A DNA stretch of 63,552 nucleotides, the filler included, from Candidatus Hydrogenedentota bacterium (GTDB lineage: Bacteria; JBFMHD01), in assembly GCA_040752395.1 (NCBI GenBank). It is 7 parts of 7 records of this genome, joined end to end, with 100 filler letters (N's around TTAATTAATTAA, not from the genome) between each part and the next. Parts side by side here need not be neighbours in the genome. Positions count along the whole stretch, not along the records: positions 35,450 to 42,346 come from JBFMHD010000149.1; 6 more parts are not named here. The stretch is one strand, 5' to 3'. Below are positions 7,045 through 63,552 of the stretch, one piece after another. The notes beneath the pieces were generated by a model. That model was not told the DNA's origin, searched no databases, and was given only the letters and a program-made list of their open reading frames with translations. How positions within the stretch are numbered: the stretch's first letter is position 1; each line of letters opens with the position of its first letter. The position numbers and the translations under genes were made by a program.

Positions 7045-7144
7045 NNNNNNNNNNNNNNNNNNNNNNNNNNNNNNNNNNNNNNNNNNNNTTAATTAATTAA
7101 NNNNNNNNNNNNNNNNNNNNNNNNNNNNNNNNNNNNNNNNNNNN
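7045..7144. other. Artificial contig linker (N run, TTAATTAATTAA, N run)
   Basis: N runs around a stop-in-all-frames spacer; same structure at five other sites. Confidence 0.99.
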
Positions 7145-8791: not shown

Positions 8792-9211
8792 TTAGAACTC
8801 TTTTAGGGCTTGTTCGAACAATGCTATCAGATGTTCTACCCGTTTTATGTAATTATGAGCCGTATCTTTATCATACAATTCTAATAATGGAGTAAAGTCT
8901 TCTTCATCGCCATAAAACGCTTGACTTCTTTCCTGGGATAGTTCTTTTGATAGATCAGAAATCTCATCAAGTTCTTTCTGCCAGGAAGAAGGGAGCCTGT
9001 TTTTATAGGCTCGAATAGTATCCGCGACATCATGAATTAAAGGTGGGTCTATCCCAAGTTTTCGCAGCATCCCTTTTAAGATTAGTTCTACAATTTCCTG
9101 GCACTCTCTGACAACATCATCATAAGCATCACGGCTGAATAATAATCTTACAGCTTCTATCCTGTTTTTAACTTTTCTTAAATATTCTTTTGCTAATAAT
9201 TCGCCATTCAT
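8792..9211 (-). CDS. HEPN domain protein (MNT-HEPN TA pair)
   Basis: VRECQEIVELILKG, HDV, ERSQAFYG; overlaps the upstream MNT gene. Confidence 0.85.
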   Translation of the reverse strand: MNGELLAKEYLRKVKNRIEAVRLLFSRDAYDDVVRECQEIVELILKGMLRKLGIDPPLIHDVADTIRAYKNRLPSSWQKELDEISDLSKELSQERSQAFYGDEEDFTPLLELYDKDTAHNYIKRVEHLIALFEQALKEF

Positions 9212-9681
9212 ATTACTACCCGCATACTGGTTTTATATTTATCATCGGGGATAAGTACCCAATATTCATTACCCATAGGGTCAGTCTGTTTATAACTTCC
9301 CAATTCTTTAAGTCTATGCTGAATTTTTTTTATTATTTTGCTAAAAAAGTCTTCACGGTCATAAATTATTTTAAATCCATCCAGAGCTCCTAAATAAAAT
9401 GGCTTTATACTATAAGACCTTTCAGTCGGTAATAAAATAAAAGAGGCGTATCTCATAAGTTCAGCATATTTTTTAAGATATGGTAAAAGAAATTTAAACC
9501 GTGCAGGTTTTAATACCGGGAAATTATCGGAAATTATTATGACATCAAGGTCGCTTTCTGGCTCGTTATTTCCTTTTACACGCGAGCCGATTAATACTAT
9601 ACTTTTTAAAGCATCCCCCCAATACAATTTTAAGTCTTCTTTTAATAGTATCATCTCCGAGAATAATATCTCATTCTTCAT
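9208..9681 (-). CDS. Minimal nucleotidyltransferase (MNT antitoxin)
   Basis: LIGSRVKG...ESDLDVII motif. Confidence 0.85.
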   Translation of the reverse strand: MKNEILFSEMILLKEDLKLYWGDALKSIVLIGSRVKGNNEPESDLDVIIISDNFPVLKPARFKFLLPYLKKYAELMRYASFILLPTERSYSIKPFYLGALDGFKIIYDREDFFSKIIKKIQHRLKELGSYKQTDPMGNEYWVLIPDDKYKTSMRVVI

Positions 9682-15737: not shown

Positions 15738-15766
15738 TTGACAGATATTTTTATAAAAACTAAAAT
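15738..15766 (+). promoter_or_regulatory. Sigma70-type promoter
   Basis: TTGACA-17 nt-TAAAAT just upstream of the riboswitch. Confidence 0.75.
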
Positions 15767-15776
15767 TATTTAAAAT

Positions 15777-15990
15777 TACAGGTGAAAAGTTTAAAAGGGA
15801 ATACGGTGTAAATCCGTAGCGAACCCGTCACTGTAACCCGGCTCTTTTAATTTTTAGAAAAGAGAAACACTTTCTTTAAATTTGCCAATACACCAATTGG
15901 TGTACAGAGGAAGCTGTACGTCACTGTCTTTTGGTAAAAAAAGGTGGGAAGACAAAAGAGAGTGCTGGGAAGCCAGGAAACCTGCCTGTA
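15777..15990 (+). ncRNA. Cobalamin riboswitch
   Basis: AGGTG...AAAAGGGAATACGGTGTAAATCCGT...CCCGTCACTGTAA...CACTG...GGGAAG...AGCCAGGAAACCTGCCTGTA (B12 box), upstream of cob genes. Confidence 0.95.
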
Positions 15991-16044
15991 ATATAATAAA
16001 AACCTTAAACTCTTCGAGGATAAGAGAGCAAAGGCTATGCTGTT

Positions 16045-17354: not shown

Positions 17355-17490
17355 AAAAAGATTAAAAGATTGAAAGATTCAAAGGAAAGGCACAGAGGCA
17401 CAGAGGCACAGAGGCACAAAGGCAGAAAGTTAAATTAAAAATTAAAAATTAGGAGTTAGGAGTCAGAAGTCAGACTTCTTGCTTCTAATA
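17355..17490. repeat. Mosaic of short tandem repeats (AAAGATTN, GGCACAGA x3-4, AAAATTA, GGAGTTA, AGAAGTC)
   Basis: Directly visible tandem 7/8-mers shared with other intergenic sites. Confidence 0.9.
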
Positions 17491-17529
17491 TATCACCTCT
17501 AACTGAGTGATGACCCAAGGTAGATCAGA

Positions 17530-18843: not shown

Positions 18844-19009
18844 CCCCTCACTGAACTTAAAAACCCCATTGAAGAGCGGTGAATGAGAGTGATTTTTTAT
18901 GACAACATTAATTATCAAGGGTTATGAGATTCATCATGTTTCTTGCCCCAACACTAATTGCTTTTTTGTTATCTTGCTTCTTACTTCTAATCTATAACTG
19001 AGGGGTTAC
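18840..19009. repeat. 170-bp segment bounded by 11-bp inverted repeats (MITE-like)
   Basis: GTAACCCCTCA 18840-18850 / TGAGGGGTTAC 18999-19009. Confidence 0.5.
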
Positions 19010-19019
19010 TTTAAGGGAT

Positions 19020-19970
19020 ATGTATAGTTTGATGATAAGTTGCGGGTATATTCTGGATTTAATTTTTGGTGACCCGCAGTGGTTGCCTCATCCTGTTCGC
19101 GGTATCGGCTGGATGATAAAAAAATTAGAACCTGTTTTAAGAAAGACTATAAAGAACGAACGTGTTTCTGGTATTTTATTCGCATTTCTTGTGATAGGTA
19201 TAGTGTGGGCTATCAGTTTTATCATCATAAAACTCTGTTATTTTATTAATATATATTTAGGAACACTGATCTCTATTTTATTAATATATACCTCACTCTC
19301 AATAAAAGATTTAAAAGTAGAAAGCATCAGAGTATATGATGCTCTGATAAAAGGGGATATAGTTTTAGCACGTAAGAATTTAAGTTTGATTGTAGGACGA
19401 GATACAGAAAATTTAAATGAAAAAGAGATAATTCGAGCAACAGTAGAGACGATCGCTGAAAATATTGTTGATGCGATAATCTCACCATTATTTTACGTAT
19501 TTATAGGTGGTCCATGTTTGGCTATTATGTATAAGGCTATAAATACTTTAGATTCTATGGTTGGATATAAAAATGAAGTTTACAGAGATTTCGGGTTTGC
19601 TTCTGCAAAGATAGATGATATCTCAAATTTTATACCCGCAAGATTGTCTGCTCTATTCTTACCACTCGCAGTGTTGATAGCGGGTGGCAATAGCAAAAAT
19701 TCTTTCAGGATTGGCTGGCGTGATGGTAAAAAGAACCCAAGTCCAAATAGCGGCATACCAGAAGCTGCTCTGTCAGGTGCATTGGGAGTTCAACTCGGTG
19801 GGATTAATTTCTATAATTCTATCCCCATAGAAAAACCATTTATTGGCGATGATATTAATCCTCTAAAAGTAACACATATAAAAGAAAGTATAAAGATTGC
19901 TTATATCTGTTCTTTTTTATTTTTGATAACAGGTATTATCTGTTTCGAACTCTGGACTAATAGTCCGTAG
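19020..19970 (+). CDS. cbiB: Adenosylcobinamide-phosphate synthase
   Basis: GDPQWLPHPVR, IVGRDT, ETIAEN, YKAINTLDSMVGY, SPNSGIPEAA. Confidence 0.95.
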   Translation: MYSLMISCGYILDLIFGDPQWLPHPVRGIGWMIKKLEPVLRKTIKNERVSGILFAFLVIGIVWAISFIIIKLCYFINIYLGTLISILLIYTSLSIKDLKVESIRVYDALIKGDIVLARKNLSLIVGRDTENLNEKEIIRATVETIAENIVDAIISPLFYVFIGGPCLAIMYKAINTLDSMVGYKNEVYRDFGFASAKIDDISNFIPARLSALFLPLAVLIAGGNSKNSFRIGWRDGKKNPSPNSGIPEAALSGALGVQLGGINFYNSIPIEKPFIGDDINPLKVTHIKESIKIAYICSFLFLITGIICFELWTNSP

Positions 19971-20112
19971 CCAGTAGCCTGTCCTGATACCTCTCACTTC
20001 TTCCGTTATCTTGCTTCTTGCTTCTACTTGATATTATTAGAGTTAGAATGTTTTTCAGAGGAGGGGTTAGGAGTTAGGAGTTAGGAGTTCGTAATAATAG
20101 CTCCGAGCTCCG
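19961..20112 (+). repeat. Modular intergenic repeat copy
   Basis: TAGTCCGTAGCC..GTCCTGATAC..(TCTTGCT)n..ATTATTAGAGTT..TTTTTCAGAGGAG plus (GGAGTTA)n; contains the cbiB stop codon. Confidence 0.9.
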
Positions 20113-20114
20113 AA

Positions 20115-20531
20115 TTATTTTTCTTTGCCATATTTGTTTTTATCTTTATATAACTTTAATATTCTATTAACCAATTTCTTTGCTATTTTAAGTGAATTCA
20201 TTACCTCTTCTTTAGTGAGTTCAGATGCCACAATAAAAGGATAGCGTTCTTCTACATAGTAATCTGTTATTTTTAAACATTCTTGACGAAATTCTTCAAA
20301 AGATGGTTCATAGTCAATAATATCATTTAACAGTATTTCTAACTCGTGAATTCTTTTTAACTTCCATCCTTTTGATAAAAGATAACCTTTCAGATATTTT
20401 TCAACTGCTTGTTGAATATTGAAACCCGCGCCTTCAAGATCACCAAGGCGAAGTAAATTTTCTGCTCGTTTAATCTCTTTTGCTCCAATTCCAAACCAAT
20501 CTGCTGGATATAAAGACTCATTTTTTCTCAT
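20115..20531 (-). CDS. HEPN domain protein
   Basis: FNIQQAVEKYLKGYL, IHEL, YVEERYP. Confidence 0.9.
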   Translation of the reverse strand: MRKNESLYPADWFGIGAKEIKRAENLLRLGDLEGAGFNIQQAVEKYLKGYLLSKGWKLKRIHELEILLNDIIDYEPSFEEFRQECLKITDYYVEERYPFIVASELTKEEVMNSLKIAKKLVNRILKLYKDKNKYGKEK

Positions 20532-20853
20532 AGAGCACTTTTCCTTTAGTTAATATCTCCTCAACAAATTGATCGCCTACTCTTATTCTCTTTTCAAGTT
20601 CTTTGGGAGTAATAACAATCGGTTCAAAGGGGATACGCCGTGTTCTATCAGAAACAATTCTGCGGACGTTTACCCTGCGATCAATGGGTCTTTCTTGGGT
20701 CCTTTTGATGATAAACAAGTCTATGTCGCTATCTTTATCCGGTTCTCCATAAACATAGGATCCAAAGAGAATTATTTTTGATGGTTTGTAGGAAGATACT
20801 ATTTTTGCGACTATTTCTGAAATTAACTGCTGCAATTTTCTATTTTTGACCAT
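20518..20853 (-). CDS. Minimal nucleotidyltransferase (MNT antitoxin)
   Basis: IILFGSYVYGEPDKDSDIDLFII. Confidence 0.9.
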   Translation of the reverse strand: MVKNRKLQQLISEIVAKIVSSYKPSKIILFGSYVYGEPDKDSDIDLFIIKRTQERPIDRRVNVRRIVSDRTRRIPFEPIVITPKELEKRIRVGDQFVEEILTKGKVLYEKK

Positions 20854-21257
20854 TATCAAACCTTGAATATCGCTCCTGCATCATTTTTGAATATCTCAAC
20901 CACTTTCCAAAGTATGGTTTTGCTCCGTCAATCACTTCGACCCGCTTTATCCCTCTTGATCGCATAGTTTTGTCTCAACTTTAATTATATTTAATTTATT
21001 TTTTAATTCTAAGAAAATTTGGTTTATCATAATTGAGTAAGATAAAGAAAATAGAGTAGAAAGTCAAGAGAAAATTGAAGGAGCTTGTAATGACTCAGTT
21101 ATTGGTGCAGTAGAACTTATACTTTAGAAGCAAGAGGCAAGAAGCAAGAAGCAAGATTATGGAATCCCACTGAAGACCGAGGGAATACAGTATACTGCTT
21201 CCCTGAAACGTGAGACACTTTAAAGGGGAGGGAAAGAGGCACAAAGGCACAAAGGCA

Positions 21258-25256: not shown

Positions 25257-25302
25257 TAGCCTGTACCCCGAATTATTAGAGTTACAGCGTTTTTCAGAGG
25301 AG
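25257..25302 (+). repeat. 3' module of the intergenic repeat (RBS-bearing end)
   Basis: TAGCCTGTACCCCGAATTATTAGAGTTACAGCGTTTTTCAGAGGAG. Confidence 0.9.
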
Positions 25303-26181: not shown

Positions 26182-26223
26182 TGATAACCGAATATCTTGC
26201 TTCTTGCCTCTTGCATCTTGCTT

Positions 26224-27561
26224 CTAAACTATGCCCTGGTCAATCATTGCATCCGCAACCTTCACAAAGCCTGCTATATTAGCGCCTTTTAAGTAGTTTA
26301 TAAATCTTCCTTCTCTACCGTATAAAACACATTGTTCGTGAATCGCTCGCATAATGGTCTTTAACCTCGAGTCGACCTCTTCACGCGTCCAGTTCAAATG
26401 CAAACTGTTCTGCGACATTTCAAGCCCGCTCGTTGCAACACCGCCTGCATTCGATGCTTTGCTCGGTGCATAGAGAATCTTGTTTTCAATAAAAGTCTGC
26501 TGTGCTTCTGGTGTGCTCGGCATATTCGCACCCTCAGCAACACAAATACAACCATTCTTAATCAGTTCTTTTGCATCGTCAAAATCAAGCTCATTTTCAG
26601 TCGCATTTGGTAAAGCTATGTCGCACTTGATACTCCAGGGAGATTTATTCTCAAAATATTCGCATTTAAATCGATCTGCATATTCTTTGATCCGACCGCG
26701 TTTTACGTTTTTAAGCTCCATTACAAACTCGAGTTTTTCTCGGTTGATGCCATCAGGATCGTAAATCATGCCATTCGAGTCAGATAAAGTAACAACCTTT
26801 GCCCCAAGTTCTATACATTTCTCAACAGTGTACTGTGCAACATTACCAGAACCTGAAGTAGTAACTATTTTCCCTTCCAAAGAATCTTTTTTAGTATTAA
26901 GCATTTCTTCTACAAAATAAATAAGACCATAACCCGTTGCCTCAGGCCTTATCAAAGAACCACCCCATTTAATACCTTTACCAGTTAATACGCCGCTAAA
27001 TTCATTAACCAGTTTCTTATACTGTCCAAAAAGATAACCAATCTCACGACCACCAACACCAATATCACCAGCTGGAACATCTGTATCAGGACCTATATGT
27101 CTGAATAATTCATTCATAAAAGCCTGACAGAATTTCATCACCTCATTATCTGATTTACCTTTAGGATCAAAATCAGAACCGCCTTTACCACCACCCATTG
27201 GTATCGTAGTTAAAGCATTCTTAAAGACCTGTTCAAATGCAAGAAATTTCAAAATACTAAGATTTACGCTCGGATGGAACCGCAAACCACCTTTATACGG
27301 ACCAATTGCACTATTCATCTGTATTCGATAACCGCGGTTAACCTGTACCTCACCCTTATCATCAAGCCAGTTAACCCTGAAGATAATAACACGTTCAGGT
27401 TCAACAATACGTTCAAGTATCTTTGCTTTCTGATACATTGGATTAGCATCTACCACAGGCATAATCGAGGTTAATACTTCACAAACAGCCTGATGGAATT
27501 CAGGTTGATTTGGGTGTTTAGCCTTTAGACGTTCCATAAACTCACTCACTCTTTTTGACAT
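26224..27561 (-). CDS. gdhA: NADP-specific glutamate dehydrogenase
   Basis: GPYKGGLRFHP, GGGKGGSDFDPKGKS, DVPAGDIGVG, RPEATGYG, GSGNVA. Confidence 0.97.
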   Translation of the reverse strand: MSKRVSEFMERLKAKHPNQPEFHQAVCEVLTSIMPVVDANPMYQKAKILERIVEPERVIIFRVNWLDDKGEVQVNRGYRIQMNSAIGPYKGGLRFHPSVNLSILKFLAFEQVFKNALTTIPMGGGKGGSDFDPKGKSDNEVMKFCQAFMNELFRHIGPDTDVPAGDIGVGGREIGYLFGQYKKLVNEFSGVLTGKGIKWGGSLIRPEATGYGLIYFVEEMLNTKKDSLEGKIVTTSGSGNVAQYTVEKCIELGAKVVTLSDSNGMIYDPDGINREKLEFVMELKNVKRGRIKEYADRFKCEYFENKSPWSIKCDIALPNATENELDFDDAKELIKNGCICVAEGANMPSTPEAQQTFIENKILYAPSKASNAGGVATSGLEMSQNSLHLNWTREEVDSRLKTIMRAIHEQCVLYGREGRFINYLKGANIAGFVKVADAMIDQGIV

Positions 27562-28174: not shown

Positions 28175-28333
28175 CTCCTCTGAAAAACGCTGTAACTCTA
28201 ATAATTCGGGGTACAGGCTACGGGCTACGGACTACAGCCGGCTGGAGCCCCCTATGAAAAGTCTTGAGTCTTGAGTCTTGAGTCTCGAGTCCTGTTTTGA
28301 CTCACGACTTGCGACTCTTTTCATATCATCTTT
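28175..28333 (-). repeat. Modular intergenic repeat copy providing the cobU RBS
   Basis: Reverse complement of the 32890-33002 and 35450-35738 elements; the contig ends inside it. Confidence 0.92.
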
Positions 28334-30809: not shown

Positions 30810-31200
30810 AAAGCATCAACCATCGCCGATCTTACCTGGTATGTCCGATTCAGGTTCATAGTAAATTTGATTTATCATAGTTGAGCATATAATAATGAAG
30901 AGTGTTGTAAAGAGTCAATGAGAAACTCCTTTAAAATTGCAAGAGTTAATAGACAGGCGACATTCTACGAATGTCGAATTGAAAATTGAAAATTGTAAAA
31001 TGAATGAAAAAATTACGTAGTAAGAGTTTTTAAAGCCGTAGACTGTGTTATGAACTTTTTCTTCACTTTTAACTTTTTAATTTTTCATAGAAGATTAGGA
31101 GGCACAGAGGCACAAATACAATTTGATTATTCAATATTAAATCCGAGCTAAATAAACTCTTGATAAAAGTTTAGGAATATGTATATTTTTATCAGGGAAA

Positions 31201-32004
31201 ATGATTTTTTATATCGACGATTTAAAAATTGAGATTAATTCAATATATCCTCTTGATTATCTTTATTCTGTAAAGGGGGATGTTAAAAAAAAAATTAGAA
31301 TTGATATAAAAAGAAGAGATTATCTGCCGCCTGTTTCGGGTAAAAAGATCGGAGAAACTAATAGAGGAGAATATTATTGTAACGGCGATAAGTTATTCTG
31401 GACATATTTTGATGAATTTTTATTTGAGGTTGAGAAAAATAAAAAAAGAAGTAAATTTTATTTAAGAGTTGATCGGGGTGAATATCATTTCAGGACTTTT
31501 ATCTTGCCATATATTTTAAATCAGGTATTAGCTTTATTTAATAAATTTATTATTCATTCTTCCTGTATTTATAATGCAGGCTTCATACAACCTGCTTTGA
31601 TTTGTTTTGTAGGTAGACCAGGCGCTGGTAAATCCACTTTAGCTGAAGAATTACAAACTATCGGGTGGCTAAAATTTGCTGATGATAAAATAGTATTAAG
31701 TAATAATAATAAAGTTTTATCTATTTTTGAAAATAATAAAACCAATAAATTAGAATTGAATAAATTCAAAAATTTTATTATTTTCCCTCAAAAAGGGAAA
31801 AAAGAGAGGATTACTGAAATTACAAAATCAGAAGCAGCTGAGAAACTTGGTCTTTCTTGTTTGTTTCCTAATTACATAAGCGTAATGAAACAGGGTTTTG
31901 AGAGTATAAACAGAATTATCGAGCAAGCATCTGTTTTTAAACTTGAGTTTATAGATAAAAAGATATTTAATGTAGGGAAGATATTAAAATTGGTTACAAG
32001 ATAA
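31201..32004 (+). CDS. HPr-kinase-related P-loop protein
   Basis: IIHSSCI, FVGRPGAGKSTL, FADD. Confidence 0.75.
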   Translation: MIFYIDDLKIEINSIYPLDYLYSVKGDVKKKIRIDIKRRDYLPPVSGKKIGETNRGEYYCNGDKLFWTYFDEFLFEVEKNKKRSKFYLRVDRGEYHFRTFILPYILNQVLALFNKFIIHSSCIYNAGFIQPALICFVGRPGAGKSTLAEELQTIGWLKFADDKIVLSNNNKVLSIFENNKTNKLELNKFKNFIIFPQKGKKERITEITKSEAAEKLGLSCLFPNYISVMKQGFESINRIIEQASVFKLEFIDKKIFNVGKILKLVTR

Positions 32005-32799: not shown

Positions 32800-33002
32800 C
32801 AAAGGCATAAAGATTGAAAGATTGAAAGATTCAAAGATTAAAAAATTAAAAATTAGAAAACAGGAGACAGGAGACAGGAGGAGAAAGCATAAAGTATGAA
32901 AAACTAAAGATGATATGTTGGCTTCGGGCTCCAGCCGGCTGTAGTCCGTAGCCTGTAGCCTGTACCCCGAATTATTAGAGTTACAATGTTTTTCAGAGGA
33001 GA
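32800..33002 (+). repeat. Modular intergenic repeat copy providing the RBS of the Rsb phosphatase gene
   Basis: (AAAGATTN)n, (CAGGAGA)n, GGCTCCAGCCGGCTGTAGTCCGTAGCC..ATTATTAGAGTTACAATGTTTTTCAGAGGAG, then ATG 33006. Confidence 0.92.
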
Positions 33003-35449: not shown

Positions 35450-35738
35450 CCGGTTAGGGGTCGGGAGTCGTGAGGCGCAAGTCGTGAGTCAAAACAGGTC
35501 TCGAGACTCAAGACTCAAGACTTTTCAGCAGGCTTTTGGCTTTTGGCTCCAGCCGGCTGTAGTCCGTAGCCTGTAGCCTGTCCTGATACTTCTCACTTCC
35601 CACTTCTTACTTCTTACTTTTTTCGTTATCTTGCATCTTGCATCTTGCTTCTTTCGTTATCTTTTTTTTCCGTTATCTTGCTTCTTGCCTCTTGCTTCTA
35701 CTTGATATTATTAGAGTTACAGCGTTTTTCAGAGGAGG
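35450..35738 (+). repeat. Longest modular intergenic repeat copy; provides the icd RBS
   Basis: GTCGTGAGTCAAAACAGG, (GACTCAA)n, CTTTTCA, GGCTCCAGCCGGCTG, (GTAGCCT)n, (CTTCTTA)n, (TCTTGCN)n, ATTATTAGAGTTACAGCGTTTTTCAGAGGAGG. Confidence 0.92.
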
Positions 35739-35748
35739 TCTACAAACT

Positions 35749-36999
35749 ATGAAATATAAAAAAATTGTTATACCTGATAGAGGCGAAAAAATTAAAGTAA
35801 AAAAGGACTTGTCGCTTGAGGTACCTGATGAACCTATTATCCCGTTTATTGAGGGTGATGGTACAGGACCTGATATCTGGGCAGCTTCTAAAAATGTGAT
35901 TGATAGCGCTGTGGCAAAAGCTTACCAGGGTAAAAGAAGAATCAGCTGGTGTGAGATCTACGCAGGCGAGAAAGCTAATAAAGTATATGAAAAAGAGATA
36001 TGGTTGCCGCACGAAACACTATTAGCTATAAAGGAATTTATCGTTGCGATTAAAGGACCTTTAACAACGCCAGTTGGTGGCGGAATTAGAAGCATTAATG
36101 TTGCACTACGACAGAAACTCGATCTGTATGCCTGTGTCAGACCTGTTAGATGGTTTGCTGGTGTCCCATCACCTGTTAAAGAACCACAAAAACTCAATGT
36201 TATTATCTTCAGAGAAACCACTGAAGATGTATATGCTGGCATTGAGTGGCAAGAAGGTACAAAAGAAGCTAAAAAATTTATCGATTTTATGAAAAAAGGG
36301 TTAAAAGTAAAAATAAGAAAAGATTCAGGAATAGGTGTGAAACCTATAAGCAGGTTCTGTACCCAGAGAATAGTTCGACGGGCCATAAGATATGCTATCG
36401 CTAATAACAAAAAGTCTGTTACTCTTGTCCATAAAGGTAATATAATGAAATTTACTGAAGGCGCATTCAGAGACTGGGGTTATGAACTCGCTAAAAAAGA
36501 ATTTAAAGATGTAGTTATAACAGAACAAGAACTGAATGAAAAATATCAGGGTAAATTACCTGATAGAAAAGTTTTAATCAAAGACCGTATCGCTGATTCT
36601 ATGTTTCAGCAGGTTTTACTCAGACCCGATGAATACGAGGTCATCTGTTTACCTAATCTTAATGGCGATTATTTATCAGACGCCTGTGCTGCGCAGGTTG
36701 GTGGTCTTGGATTAGCACCTGGTGCTAATATCGGTGATTATGCTGCGTTATTTGAAGCTACTCACGGAACCGCACCTAAATATGCAGGTCAGGATAAAGT
36801 TAATCCAGGAAGCTTACTACTCTCAGGTGTCATGATGCTTGAACATCTTGGCTGGAATGAGGCCGCTAATCTGATTATTAAGGGTTTAGAACAAACCATC
36901 AATAATAAAACTGTAACATACGACCTTGAAAGACAGATGCCAGGTTCTAAACTTTTAAAATGTTCACAATTCGCACAGGCTATCGTTGATAATATGTAA
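35749..36999 (+). CDS. icd: Isocitrate dehydrogenase (NADP)
   Basis: [58 protein letters not shown]; likely start 35749, with the upstream extension being repeat DNA. Confidence 0.97.
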
Positions 37000-41152: not shown

Positions 41153-42022
41153 ATGGACGCTAAAGTAAAAGAACGAATGACTAATCCTATGCACAATTAT
41201 TTAAGGCCCAAAAAGAAGTTCCCTACTGTTTGGTGTGCAGGATGTGGGAACGGCATAGTACTTCAGAGTATAGTATCAGCGATTGATTCTTTAGGTTTAG
41301 ATAGAAACAAGGTAGTGCTTGTTTCAGGCATAGGGTGTTCTTCGCGTGCACCGGTGTATGTTGATTTTAATTCATTACATACCACCCATGGCCGAGCGAT
41401 CGCATTTGCTTCTGGTGTTAAGTTTGCTGACCCACAATTAAAGGTTATAGTTATAACAGGTGATGGTGATGCTGTTGCAATTGGTGGAAATCATTTTATA
41501 CATGCTTGTAGAAGAAATATGGATATCACAGCGATAGTTTTCAATAACTATATTTATGGTATGACAGGCGGTCAGGTGTCGCCGACCACACCCCAGTCTG
41601 CGTTTGCTTCAACCTCGCCACATGGTAATATTGACCAACCATTTGATATATGTGAGCTTGCGATAGGTGCAGGCGCATCGTTCGTAGCTCGAACCACTGT
41701 CGCACACCCTAATCTTTTATATCAATATATATTACAGGGGTTAAAAAATAACGGGTTCTCAGTAATAGAAGTCTTGGTTAATTGCCCTACTAACTTTGGC
41801 AGACGAAACAAACTTGGGGACGCTGTTAATATGATTAAAAGTTTGAAAGAGATGGCCATAACTATGGATTCACTTAAAAGTAAATGGATGAAAGAGCAGA
41901 ACATAGATTTGTCTGATTTAGAAAAACACATTCTGACCGGAATATTTACAGATATAAAAAAACCGCGATTTATTGAGAATTATGCCTCACTTATTAAACG
42001 ATTACAAAGATTGAAAGATTGA
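41153..42022 (+). CDS. korB: 2-oxoacid:ferredoxin oxidoreductase beta subunit
   Basis: WCAGCG, SGIGCS, HGRA, GDGD..IGGNH, YGMTGGQ. Confidence 0.93.
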   Translation: MDAKVKERMTNPMHNYLRPKKKFPTVWCAGCGNGIVLQSIVSAIDSLGLDRNKVVLVSGIGCSSRAPVYVDFNSLHTTHGRAIAFASGVKFADPQLKVIVITGDGDAVAIGGNHFIHACRRNMDITAIVFNNYIYGMTGGQVSPTTPQSAFASTSPHGNIDQPFDICELAIGAGASFVARTTVAHPNLLYQYILQGLKNNGFSVIEVLVNCPTNFGRRNKLGDAVNMIKSLKEMAITMDSLKSKWMKEQNIDLSDLEKHILTGIFTDIKKPRFIENYASLIKRLQRLKD

Positions 42023-42216
42023 AAGATTAAAAGGAAAGGCACAGAGGCACAAAGTATGAAAAGAGTCACAAGTCGCAAGTCGTGAGTCAAAACAGGACTC
42101 GAGACTCAAGACTTTTCAGCAGGCTCTTGGCTTTTGGCTCCAGGTGGCTGTAGTCCGTAGCCTGTAGCCTGTCCTGACACCTCTCACTTCTTCTGTTATC
42201 TTGCTTCTTGCTTCTA
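42010..42216 (+). repeat. Modular intergenic repeat copy inside the kor operon
   Basis: Same modules as 35450-35700; overlaps the korB stop codon. Confidence 0.92.
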
Positions 42217-50359: not shown

Positions 50360-50591
50360 ATAGATATCAGACTTCAGACGTTAGACTTAAAGGAAGGATG
50401 TTGTCTTCAGGCTACAGACTACAGGCTTCAGATTGCAGACCACAGGCTCTTCAGGCTCCAGGCTTTTTGCTCCAGCCGGCTGTAGTCCGTAGCCTGTAGC
50501 CTGTCCTGATACTTCTCACTTCTTCCGTTATCTTGCTTCTTGCTTCTTGCTTCTACTTGATATTATTATAGTTACAATGTTTTTCAGAGGA
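50360..50591 (+). repeat. Modular intergenic repeat copy providing the ribBA RBS
   Basis: (TCAGACT/ACAGGCT)n, then CTCCAGCCGGCTG(GTAGCCT)n..(TCTTGCT)n..GTTACAATGTTTTTCAGAGGA. Confidence 0.92.
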
Positions 50592-56901: not shown

Positions 56902-56957
56902 TGTCTTTCACCAATACTATCAAGCACCGGGCATCTCTCCTGTCTCCTGTCTTCTAT

Positions 56958-61954: not shown

Positions 61955-62043
61955 GAACGTGTGAAAAAATTAGACTTTTTCCGAAAACAGGGGCTGATAA
62001 TAAAAGAGTTACCCGGTATTAATGATGATTATTTCACACGTTC
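61955..62043. mobile_element. 89-bp MITE with 12-bp TIRs and TCA target duplication
   Basis: GAACGTGTGAAA / TTTCACACGTTC, flanked by TCA on both sides. Confidence 0.7.
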
Positions 62044-62120
62044 TCAGTTATAGGTAGAGAAGAAGTGAGAAGTAAGAAGTATCAGAAAATAGAAGCAAGA
62101 AGCAAGGAACGGCAAGCAAC

Positions 62121-63245
62121 TTAAAATTTTGCTTTTAATGCGACTATTACTGCCCCTTGATCATCCATCACATTAACATTGCTCTCTGCATTCGCATCCA
62201 TATACTCTATCATCAAAGTAATGTTTTTTGTTATCTCTTTATGCAGTTGTATCAGATGAGCATTCTTAAAATTCGTGTCTGCTGAATCATCGTCATCATA
62301 ATCATTATATGAATATACTAATCTCCAGCCCCAAGAAAACTTCCAATCAAACCCGGCCTGCCATACCTTTTCATTACTTATAAAAGATTCTGCGACTGTT
62401 TTGGTATTATCAAATCTCTCGTTCTCTAATATCTCACCAAAAATAGTCAAACCTCTAACAATCTCATCAAGTTCGAACTGTAGCCCGATACTCCATCGGT
62501 CATTATCGCGGCAAGGGTCTGGCGTGTTTGTTCTCCATGCCGGCGTATCAGCTCTTGTTGCATAAGATGCCTCTATAAAAATATTGGGCATCAGCCTATC
62601 AAGCGTTATTCGTGCGCTAAAACCGTCTGAGAGCGTAGCGTTCGACTCATCTGCTACACCATTACCATTGTTCCCGATATCATCTATATCATCAAGGTCA
62701 ATTACAGAGGCTTCTATTTTACCTATATCTTTTATCTCGTAGCCTATCATTATACCCCAGACTTTATCAATCTCGTATGTATGAGGAAAGGGGTCAAAAG
62801 CTCCGACATCATAATCCATCCCAAACGGCTGTTCAAATTTACCTATCCGCAAAAAAATCGGGATATCTCTCATTATCTTATCAAAATGTATGTATGCTTC
62901 TTCCAGCTCCTTGTTATTTGCTAAATCACCTTGAGCAAAATCAAGTTTTACATTTGCAGAGATAAGCTCTGAAAACTGGTATTTAGCCCATAGATACACA
63001 TTCTCACAAACAATTTTATCACCACCATACCTTGTCTCTATATCTCCCTTTATATATTTACTGCCATCAGAAGGATTCCAGTGTAGCGAAACATCATTCC
63101 AGTCAAAATCTCCTATAATATAGTGAACCAAAACTTCCCCACCTATCTCAAGGTTCTGGTCTTTAAATTTAACAGCAAATATTCTTGCTGGAATCCACAT
63201 AATCATAATGGAACATAAAATAATACTACTAAATAATCTTTTCAT
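62121..63245 (-). CDS. Outer-membrane beta-barrel (porin-like)
   Basis: Signal peptide, LEEAYIHF, RIGKFEQPFG, amphipathic strands, C-terminal Phe. Confidence 0.8.
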   Translation of the reverse strand: MKRLFSSIILCSIMIMWIPARIFAVKFKDQNLEIGGEVLVHYIIGDFDWNDVSLHWNPSDGSKYIKGDIETRYGGDKIVCENVYLWAKYQFSELISANVKLDFAQGDLANNKELEEAYIHFDKIMRDIPIFLRIGKFEQPFGMDYDVGAFDPFPHTYEIDKVWGIMIGYEIKDIGKIEASVIDLDDIDDIGNNGNGVADESNATLSDGFSARITLDRLMPNIFIEASYATRADTPAWRTNTPDPCRDNDRWSIGLQFELDEIVRGLTIFGEILENERFDNTKTVAESFISNEKVWQAGFDWKFSWGWRLVYSYNDYDDDDSADTNFKNAHLIQLHKEITKNITLMIEYMDANAESNVNVMDDQGAVIVALKAKF

Positions 63246-63437
63246 AACAACTCCTATTTGTGCCTCTGTGCCTAACGTCTAATGTCTTATGTATTATTGT
63301 AGCAAGATACTCTTGTCATAGCAAGATATTTTTATTTCAATTGGTATGGGGTATAGATGTATCACTTGACATATACTTTTTTCTCGTAAATGATAAAATA
63401 TTCTTAACTTTTAACTCTTTAAAGGAGTCAACATGAG

Positions 63438-63552
63438 CGCGTTTGCGCTCTACACTATTGGGTTATTGGGTTATTGGGTTTTTGCGTTTTTGCGCTCTAC
63501 ACAACGTATGAAAAACTAAAGATGATATGAAAAGAGTCGTGAGTCAAAACAG
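63438..63552 (+). repeat. Start of another modular repeat copy
   Basis: (TTATTGGG)n, GCGCTCTACAC x2, GTATGAAAAACTAAAGATGATATGAAAAGAGTCGTGAGTCAAAACAG matching 28290-28333 (reverse complement) and 32894-32917. Confidence 0.88.

Follow-up and report, generated by a model that had tools for sequence, protein, structure and literature searches.

An ordered repeat mosaic in the gene spacers of a Candidatus Hydrogenedentota bacterium, closed by an end piece with a Shine-Dalgarno sequence

A repeat mosaic of ordered modules recurs in the spacers between genes of Candidatus Hydrogenedentota bacterium JBFMHD01 (assembly GCA_040752395.1). It was mapped in a stretch of 63,552 nucleotides, filler included (the window), a chain of draft contigs of ~63 kb with a GC content of 34.5%, in which the contigs are joined by N44-TTAATTAATTAA-N44 linkers at positions 7045, 14163, 21258, 28334, 35350, and 42347. 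The window contains 17 mosaic loci, 16 of which are set out in Table 1, and a further copy (L002) lies on the 2.2-kb contig C128 of the metagenome-assembled genome (MAG) G001. The loci are assembled from nine recurring modules (M1 to M9), the last of which finishes in a Shine-Dalgarno (SD) sequence a few nucleotides ahead of several start codons. We tentatively read this mosaic, with a confidence slightly short of even, as a lineage-specific intercistronic element similar to BOX repeats and bacterial interspersed mosaic elements (BIMEs), which spreads by copying between spacers and the end of which is a translation-initiation region. All organism-level counts rest on these ~63 kb, and the M9 copies number seven, three of which are cut by contig ends.

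The modules were mapped with coordinate-defined reference pieces placed by blastn-short. Purine-rich arrays make up the first four modules, namely an array of 7/8-nt units, (AAAGATTG)n, in M1, the octamer array (AGGCACAR)n in M2, AAATTAA-type units in M3, and (ACAGGAG)/(TTAGGAG)n in M4. They are followed by a unique linker (M5) and by two hairpins. The first hairpin (M6) has arms of (GAGTCNN)-type units and their inverted complement, with the ends TGAAAAGAGTC...GACTTTTCA; the second (M7) consists of (GGCTYYN)n, the centre CAGCCGGCTG, and (TAGYCYG)n, its arms, too, pairing a heptamer array with the inverted complement. Pyrimidines predominate in the block M8, CCTGATAC-(TTCTCAC)n-(TCTTGCT)n, whereas the unique end piece M9 spans 31 nt, ATTATTAGAGTTACAGCGTTTTTCAGAGGAG, and finishes in GTTTTTCAGAGGAG. 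Tandem repeats are frequent in the window as a whole, for which TRF returned 74 rows, many with a period of 7-8, and in which 19 arrays repeat a unit of period 7-8 exactly over 2.4 copies or more.

Several conserved stretches of the mosaic occurred far more often in the window than expected by chance. Allowing up to two mismatches, GGCTCCAGCCGGCTG was found nine times at five loci versus 0.01 expected matches, more than one match per locus being possible because its core is palindromic. Similarly, a 25-mer ending in CAGAGGAG gave five matches with up to three mismatches versus 0.00 expected, and GTTTTTCAGAGGA was present without mismatch at six sites (20050, 25289, 28176 on the minus strand, 32988, 35724, and 50579). 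M9 was represented by six copies in the window and one on L002, among which the 31-nt end piece shows 0-3 differences. The order from M1 to M9 was kept in all eight loci with at least three modules, as well as in copy Q, and was never violated; in addition, the modules of any one composite locus share one strand. An earlier note on this DNA had listed eight copies with ordered, shared modules. All eight positions carry copies and the motifs that it quoted are far above chance, but the element turned out to be larger, with M1-M5 upstream and alternative ends 3' of M8. The TGAAAAGAGTC..GACTTTTCA pair, which it took for self-inverted ends of the element, is indeed inverted, but bounds the internal hairpin M6 and not the whole element.

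The position of the mosaic relative to genes carries the second part of the reading. At most 10% of the length of any of the 17 window loci falls within open reading frames (ORFs), and mosaics often occupy the whole spacer between co-directional genes, operon-internal spacers included. For 13 of 16 loci, the next ORF of 80 aa or more lies ahead in the same orientation. The AGAGGAG at the end of M9 (AGAGGA in the case of ribBA) precedes the ATG of cobU by 5 nt, that of an Rsb-type phosphatase gene by 4 nt, that of icd by 11 nt, that of ribBA by 9 nt, and that of a 57-aa ORF by 7 nt. The distance of 3-11 nt to five starts given in the earlier note was recovered as 4-11 nt, with the identity of the fifth gene, labelled an MNT relic, unconfirmed. 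This 57-aa ORF showed no nucleotidyltransferase family in Pfam, with one sub-threshold tRNA-synthetase match, and BLASTP against the nucleotidyltransferase of the window gave no match for one fragment and E = 4.1 over 14 residues for the other. M9 ends 4-11 nt before the start of a Pfam-confirmed gene in four of its six window copies, and an ATG lies within 4-11 nt after M9 in six of the seven copies (L002 included). A simple calculation from a start-proximity chance of p = 0.0227 per copy puts four of six copies at starts at ~4e-6. Furthermore, cobU, the Rsb-type phosphatase gene, icd, and ribBA have no SD ahead of them other than that of M9, and no second SD was found in the spacer between M9 and the ATG of any M9 copy. 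An SD-like core of any sort precedes only 18 of the 49 crude starts in the window, so that the SD of M9 is unusually strong for this DNA. The start of ribBA was confirmed by a full-length homologue match.

Neighbouring genes identified by Pfam comprise cbiB, cobU, the Rsb-type phosphatase gene, icd, korB, and ribBA, which agrees with the names given in the earlier note. Loci A and B lie inside an operon behind a cobalamin riboswitch, and locus L separates korB from the following ORF of the korB cluster. The overlap of copies with stop codons, as well as the breaking of contigs inside the element, had been pointed out before and was found again, the former at cbiB (stop 19968-19970, in M7) and korB (stop 42020-42022, in M1), the latter at the contig ends 21257, 28333, and 35450, which are situated inside modules. 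A sigma-70-like promoter scan called no promoter in any module (window total 74 versus 81.4 by chance); by eye only, TGATATTAT at the M8-M9 joint resembles an extended -10 box, which is absent from the short type of joint described below.

Copies differ in composition in a way that indicates exchange. The joint between M7 and M9 occurs in a short form (E, G, I, and L002) and in a long form that includes M8 (C, K, and M). On the 3' side of M8, either M9 (three loci), an alternative end with TAACTGAG (four loci), or other sequence is found; TAACTGAG has seven matches in the window versus 1.73 expected, four of which directly follow M8 arrays. All four combinations of M8 presence and M9 variant exist, namely M8 with ACAGCG (K), M8 with ACAATG (M), no M8 with ACAGCG (E, G, and L002), and no M8 with ACAATG (I). 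Unit numbers of hairpin arms and arrays vary independently among copies, and M6 and M8 are optional. The M8 and M9-variant combinations and the unit numbers show that the copies are reshuffled among each other. Copies are 45-290 nt long and no ORF is conserved across them; a coding role was rejected, as reading frames change with unit number. Hairpins M6 and M7 were predicted in every copy that was folded. A scan of the window at Rfam gathering thresholds returned only the cobalamin riboswitch and tRNA, and E-value scans of copies K and I gave no match at E <=1.

The mosaic may spread by copying between spacers. The mosaic would be transcribed as intercistronic or leader RNA, in which M9, with its U-run and strong SD, may act with or without the pyrimidine tract M8 as the region where translation of the downstream cistron is initiated. 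M6 and M7 may function as stem-loops that protect or process RNA ends, as in BOX and repetitive extragenic palindromic (REP) sequences. New copies could arise where the shared arrays seed recombination, gene conversion, or template switching, and slippage would alter the number of units. The right-hand junction would land in a purine-rich SD tract already owned by the target gene, which would account for the loss of similarity beyond AGAGGAG and for the gene-specific spacers of 4-11 nt. If genes such as icd, ribBA, and cobU do use M9 as their ribosome-binding site (RBS), a spreading repeat would provide some of the initiation signals of this organism; it would be a portable RBS cassette of natural origin, through which expression inside operons could be rewired.

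Copies outside the window proved scarce. An M9 pattern scan of the genome contig collection retrieved one real extra copy (L002) and one chance match in a Bacillota gene, the same scan of metagenome contigs yielded two chance matches inside genes only, and viral contigs gave 0 matches; blastn against plasmids and phages found none. The M9 of L002 is identical to that of the window and is followed by a small hydrophobic ORF of 24 codons from an ATG at 148, or of 27 aa from an upstream GTG. No further copies were found in G001 outside contig C128. The RibBA of G001 is only 66% identical to that of the window, so that contig C128 may be mis-binned. At this identity the ribBA of G001, which has an ordinary promoter and SD upstream, is too distant to count as an empty site. 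In the nearest genomes RibBA identity is only 63-67% and korB gave no match, the korB search covering five genomes. A search of 40 relatives of G001 recovered no M9. The G001 phylum is an uncultured one, represented by 25 genomes. The M6 core was found in none of these 25, M9 in none of the 24 other than G001, and the M7 core in none of those 24 either, beyond five loose matches with one or two mismatches. The octamer array of M2 is more widespread, as (AGGCACAR)2 was present in 18 of the 25 genomes versus 1 of 201 genomes of an unrelated control phylum, and up to 93 times in one 1.3-Mb genome of the phylum.

A number of observations weigh against copying between spacers, or against a role of the end in initiation. 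Fold z-scores are modest (-3.3, -0.7, -1.9, and -1.65). In predictions the SD is unpaired with a probability of 0.12-0.66, and since its pairing partner differs in each copy, no common RNA switch or SD-masking fold is seen. One M9 copy (C, 19961-20063) is an orphan without a gene after it, and the M8 array of locus F is antisense to both flanking genes. Decayed M9 copies were not found beyond chance at up to two mismatches in the window, and the near-identity of M9 without such copies also fits a recent burst. Repeat-ended contigs may over-represent mosaics in a sample of ~63 kb. In addition, copy M shows an 8-nt direct repeat (AGGATGTT) around 185 nt and copy I a 7-nt one (GAGGAGA) around 111 nt, and these may be target duplications. 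Lastly, the genome G022 (L082-L100), from the phylum that shares the octamer array, contains a true transposable element of the miniature inverted-repeat kind (MITE) with array arms, which makes transposition a live alternative.

In that alternative, which we consider possible although somewhat unlikely, the mosaic would be a non-autonomous element resembling MITEs or palindrome-associated transposable elements (PATEs), inserting one-way into SD-like purine tracts and duplicating them. The apparent RBS would largely be the gene's own SD, retained as the right target copy, and the transposase would be encoded elsewhere. The two flanking repeats, found in two of four testable copies (three others being cut by contig ends), fit this view; in both, the right boundary is GTTTTTCA(G), and deletion of the inserts would leave a plausible native arrangement of SD, spacer, and ATG. 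However, the repeats were not significant in a shuffle test (p ~0.054 for M and 0.25 for I), none were present at copies E and C, and the two inserts have no related sequence at their left ends. No copy has outer inverted repeats, and left ends differ, consisting of M1, M5, M7, or further arrays; inverted pairs were limited to the ends of the internal M6 and the 8-nt pair TGAAAAAC/GTTTTTCA. Moreover, copies without M9 or with another end carry the same upstream modules. None of 48 window proteins belongs to a transposase, integrase, or reverse transcriptase family, in agreement with the earlier note, which saw no cognate enzyme, and RAYT proteins were absent among them. The near-identity of all M9 copies suits a MITE-like element, as do the contig breaks in the element, which imply a high copy number. 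As to the ends and target duplications, to which the earlier note had drawn attention, the outcome is variable left ends and non-significant repeats in two of four copies. Of its composite mobile element, the composite dispersed repeat remains, while transposon-type mobility is not supported, given the lack of outer inverted repeats and the variable left ends; that the element targets or replaces translation-initiation regions, as the earlier note proposed, is an inference.

It is the MITE of G022 that makes this alternative credible. Its left arm is (AGGCACAR)n, its right arm the inverted complement, and its ends are GTATGTGTTTAGCTA and the inverse. The end motif had 175 matches in 1.3 Mb versus 0 in controls; among 19 array loci fetched, 10 had both ends, and five of these complete ones were flanked by repeats of 8-9 nt. 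No autonomous copy was seen among the positions listed. The MITE shares with the mosaic the octamer array of M2, a hairpin of array and inverted complement as in M6 and M7, and a location in short spacers upstream of genes. Unlike the mosaic, it has clear ends and flanking duplications and is placed upstream of the SD that belongs to the gene, at 20-45 nt from starts. Its end motif was not enriched in the window (four matches at up to three mismatches versus 4.8 expected), and M6, M7, and M9 were not found in G022.

An explanation that we regard as unlikely holds that M9 and the arrays form a shared cis-regulatory leader under selection, being the binding site of one small RNA or one factor binding RNA or DNA, which would co-regulate the translation of a group of operon-internal genes. 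In its favour, M9 is far better conserved than the surrounding arrays and identical on L002, and it has a fixed position at the SD in sense orientation. The distribution of the octamer array over one phylum (18 of 25 genomes versus 1 of 201 controls) fits recognition by a conserved factor, and a comparable proposal has been published for the TAACTGA repeats discussed below (PMC4679880, available text). Yet cobU, icd, ribBA, and the Rsb-type phosphatase gene share no evident function, copy C of M9 has no gene to serve, neither a conserved RNA structure nor an SD-masking partner common to the copies was seen, and no candidate factor was identified. Furthermore, outside the window M9 was found only on contig C128 of G001, and not in the 40 relatives searched. 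A selected regulatory leader is compatible with both the mosaic and the MITE-like readings.

Quite improbable, in our estimation, is that the mosaic is the product of an unrecognised sequence-specific system common to this organism and one uncultured phylum. An enzyme or a factor binding nucleic acids would read a limited set of 7-8-nt units such as (AGGCACAR)n, seed arrays at new sites or copy them there, and install a portable M8-M9 initiation cassette at operon-internal SD tracts, in one orientation and leaving genes unbroken; the element would then be a mobile RBS cassette and not a passive repeat. Finally, an assembly artefact in the form of an adaptor-like or chimeric repeat at contig ends would agree with the three contig ends inside modules and with a window that is a chain of short contigs, but is excluded for practical purposes, as copies I, M, C, E, and L are contig-internal, unique genes flank I, M, C, and E on both sides, an extra copy occurs on an independent assembly, and copies vary in unit number and point variants.

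The mosaic is a variant of a kind of element that is already known, BOX being closest in architecture, and TAACTGA repeats and Nostoc heptamers being closest in position. The undescribed system of the earlier note was an overstatement, as BOX modular repeats and start-adjacent heptamer arrays (Beggiatoaceae, Nostoc) are already in print. The likeness to BOX is one of architecture, and no inverted relation was seen between the outer modules of the mosaic. The tandem module of BOX is longer than the 7-8-nt units of the mosaic. According to the available text of Croucher et al. (2011, PMC3049150), the BOX repeats of Streptococcus pneumoniae have the structure boxA-(boxB)n-boxC. Like the mosaic, they are interspersed, have ordered modules with an internal one that is variable in tandem number, occupy intergenic or co-transcribed positions (co-transcription being inferred for the mosaic), and form predicted stem-loops (PMC3049150). 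BOX is reported to affect downstream gene expression, and slippage and recombination have been proposed for its size variation (PMC3049150). In contrast, inverted repeats at the termini, duplication of the target, and a parent transposon that has been proposed set BOX apart, none of these being established for the mosaic, and the available text contains no report of BOX ending in the SD of the next gene and describes BOX-derived ORFs as lacking good SD candidates (PMC3049150).

With respect to position, TAACTGA direct repeats have been described in marine Beggiatoaceae, Cyanobacteria, and Bacteroidetes (MacGregor 2015, PMC4679880, available text). They share with the mosaic tandem units of 7 nt, a mostly intergenic and forward location a few nucleotides from starts, an occurrence before unrelated and essential genes, and their origin in draft genomes of uncultured organisms (PMC4679880). 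A translational role was proposed for them, their mechanism of spread being given as not known; one of the heptamers coincides in part with the expected RBS, and few canonical SDs are seen (PMC4679880). Unlike them, the mosaic combines many units and unique linkers in a fixed order and is closed by a canonical strong SD. Within the window TAACTGA never occurs in tandem, TAACTGAG being present as seven single sites, and the array units differ. Cyanobacterial short tandemly repeated repetitive (STRR) sequences are short tandem heptamers akin to those of Nostoc. In Nostoc PCC 7120, contiguous heptamer repeats occur near start codons or promoters (bioRxiv 10.1101/2022.06.06.494920, available text). 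As in the mosaic, short tandem heptamers precede many genes, some touch the start codon, and an effect on expression is suspected, whereas the Nostoc arrays are of a single unit, without a multi-module mosaic or conserved end piece as far as that text goes, and their unit sequences differ (bioRxiv 10.1101/2022.06.06.494920).

In architecture only, the mosaic also resembles REP/BIME mosaics, sharing palindromic units (M6/M7) with linkers in intercistronic order. In enterobacteria, REP/BIME sequences consist of palindromic units and linkers in intercistronic or 3' mosaics, and REPs depend on RAYT transposases. Correia elements of Neisseria can supply promoters to neighbouring genes and have inverted ends and TA duplications. 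We know of no description of REP/BIME or Correia elements supplying an SD and, to our knowledge, the combination of a fixed multi-module order and a conserved SD-bearing end piece has not been described. No description of this mosaic or of the octamer array was found in the literature covered, which was limited. Correia elements are mentioned in the available text of PMC4853749.

The octamer array, common to an uncultured phylum and forming the arms of a MITE, links heptamer arrays with transposable elements, which are mostly considered apart from each other, and gives a tractable starting point for work on the origin and spread of such arrays. Further arrays and elements were observed in the genomes compared. 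G010 and G005 (L045-L053) contain another inverted-repeat element of ~150-200 nt with internal heptamers; it is bounded by GTAATCGGTCAGTTAAAGGGG... and the inverse, has TATTGCTTCTTGCTTACTCC in its core, and carries TAACTGA in one end. In G019 (L062-L081, 389 kb), nine of 12 heptamer/octamer arrays examined lie inside long ORFs (263-736 aa) that read through them, for example at L065:5383-5416, L062:358-391, and L081:5053-5089, with units including GGAGTCG, GAGTCAG, and AAGGCACA. With identities judged by eye, these look like in-frame insertions in otherwise ordinary genes.

Table 1. Mosaic loci catalogued in the window, and the additional copy on contig C128 of G001
Locus	Coordinates	Strand	Modules and arrays	Gene context
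A	17357..17507	+	M1-M2-M3-M8; TTAGGAG units after M3, M8 as a fragment, alternative end with TAACTGAG	upstream of radical-SAM gene (17530)
B	18951..19002	+	M8 fragment and alternative end (TAACTGAG)	17 nt before cbiB start (19020)
C (orphan)	19961..20089	+	M7-M8-M9; 3' half of M7 (holds cbiB stop), M9 variant AGAATG, four AGGAGTT units	no gene downstream; convergent with HEPN gene 20115-20531
D	21094..21257	- and +	M8 array and TAACTGAG on minus (21094-21157); M2 array on plus (21235-21257)	reaches contig end with M2 array
E	25258..25302	+	last M7 unit and M9 (short type)	57-aa ORF from 25310
F	26193..26226	+	M8-type (TCTTGCT)n array	opposite strand to both neighbours, gdh and cobO
G	28175..28333	-	M5-M6-M7-M9 (short type), M5 as tail	cobU ATG 28169; reaches contig end 28333
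H	31074..31114	- and +	short M3-like stretch (minus); M2 array (plus, 31099-31114)	87 nt upstream of gene at 31201
I	32809..33001	+	M1-M3-M4-M5-M7-M9 (short type), without M6 or M8	fills spacer from trmI-like gene (ends 32790) to Rsb-type phosphatase gene (ATG 33006)
K	35450..35737	+	M6-M7-M8-M9; M6 35476-35527, M7 35528-35584, M8 35583-35702 (expanded, three blocks), M9 35701-35737	starts at contig start inside M6; icd start codon 35749 (icd by Pfam)
L	42006..42216	+	M1-M2-M6-M7-M8, without M9	M1 overlaps korB stop; 3' of copy, 69 nt unique sequence with own G-rich SD, then ORF from 42286 (MRKISGRYDIRLSGSGGQGL, cut by contig end)
M	50367..50591	+	M7-M8-M9; 7-nt arrays, M7 50452-50507, M8 50506-50557, M9 50556-50591 (variant end AGAGGAT)	ribBA from 50601
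N	56936..56952	-	M4 (ACAGGAG) array	35 nt upstream of MazG-family gene start (56901)
O	62043..62106	-	M8-type arrays and TAACTGAG	~100 nt upstream of mfd-like gene start (61941)
P	63259..63273	-	M2 array	14 nt upstream of minus-strand gene 62121-63245
Q	63442..63552	+	M5-M6, M6 start cut by window end	M5 contains 3' end of 28-codon ORF 63433-63519
L002			M5-M7-M9	

Some further observations concern the genes next to the mosaics. The cobalamin riboswitch (Rfam RF00174, 77.3 bits) is located at 15763-16003 (+), ahead of an operon of aminotransferase, radical-SAM, and cbiB genes. At icd, the longest ORF opens with a TTG at 35638 and so passes through M8 and M9 upstream of the gene (35638-35748), whereas the ATG at 35749 fits the start of the Pfam domain; gene callers could thus extend genes into the repeat. 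In practical terms, mosaics break assemblies, and ORFs running into arrays can mislead gene callers. At the 5' truncation of copy C, the 3' end of cbiB (19956-19967) forms a GGACTA-A-TAGTCC palindrome together with the first M7 unit, possibly the trace of a fold-back or template-switch event. Two HEPN/nucleotidyltransferase gene pairs occur in the window (8792-9681 and 20115-20859), the latter being convergent with cbiB and directly after the orphan M9, and insertion of such a cassette may have orphaned the M9 of copy C. The 28-codon ORF at copy Q (63433-63519, +; MSAFALYTIGLLGYWVFAFLRSTQRMKN) is preceded by AAAGGAG and has its last codons and stop in M5; its tail is also found on L002, and it putatively encodes a small hydrophobic peptide. 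Lastly, a (CTAACCC) array of 4.3 units (73-102) lies in an ORF of 1947 aa with Ig domains at the start of the window, the only module-like array inside a long ORF of the window.

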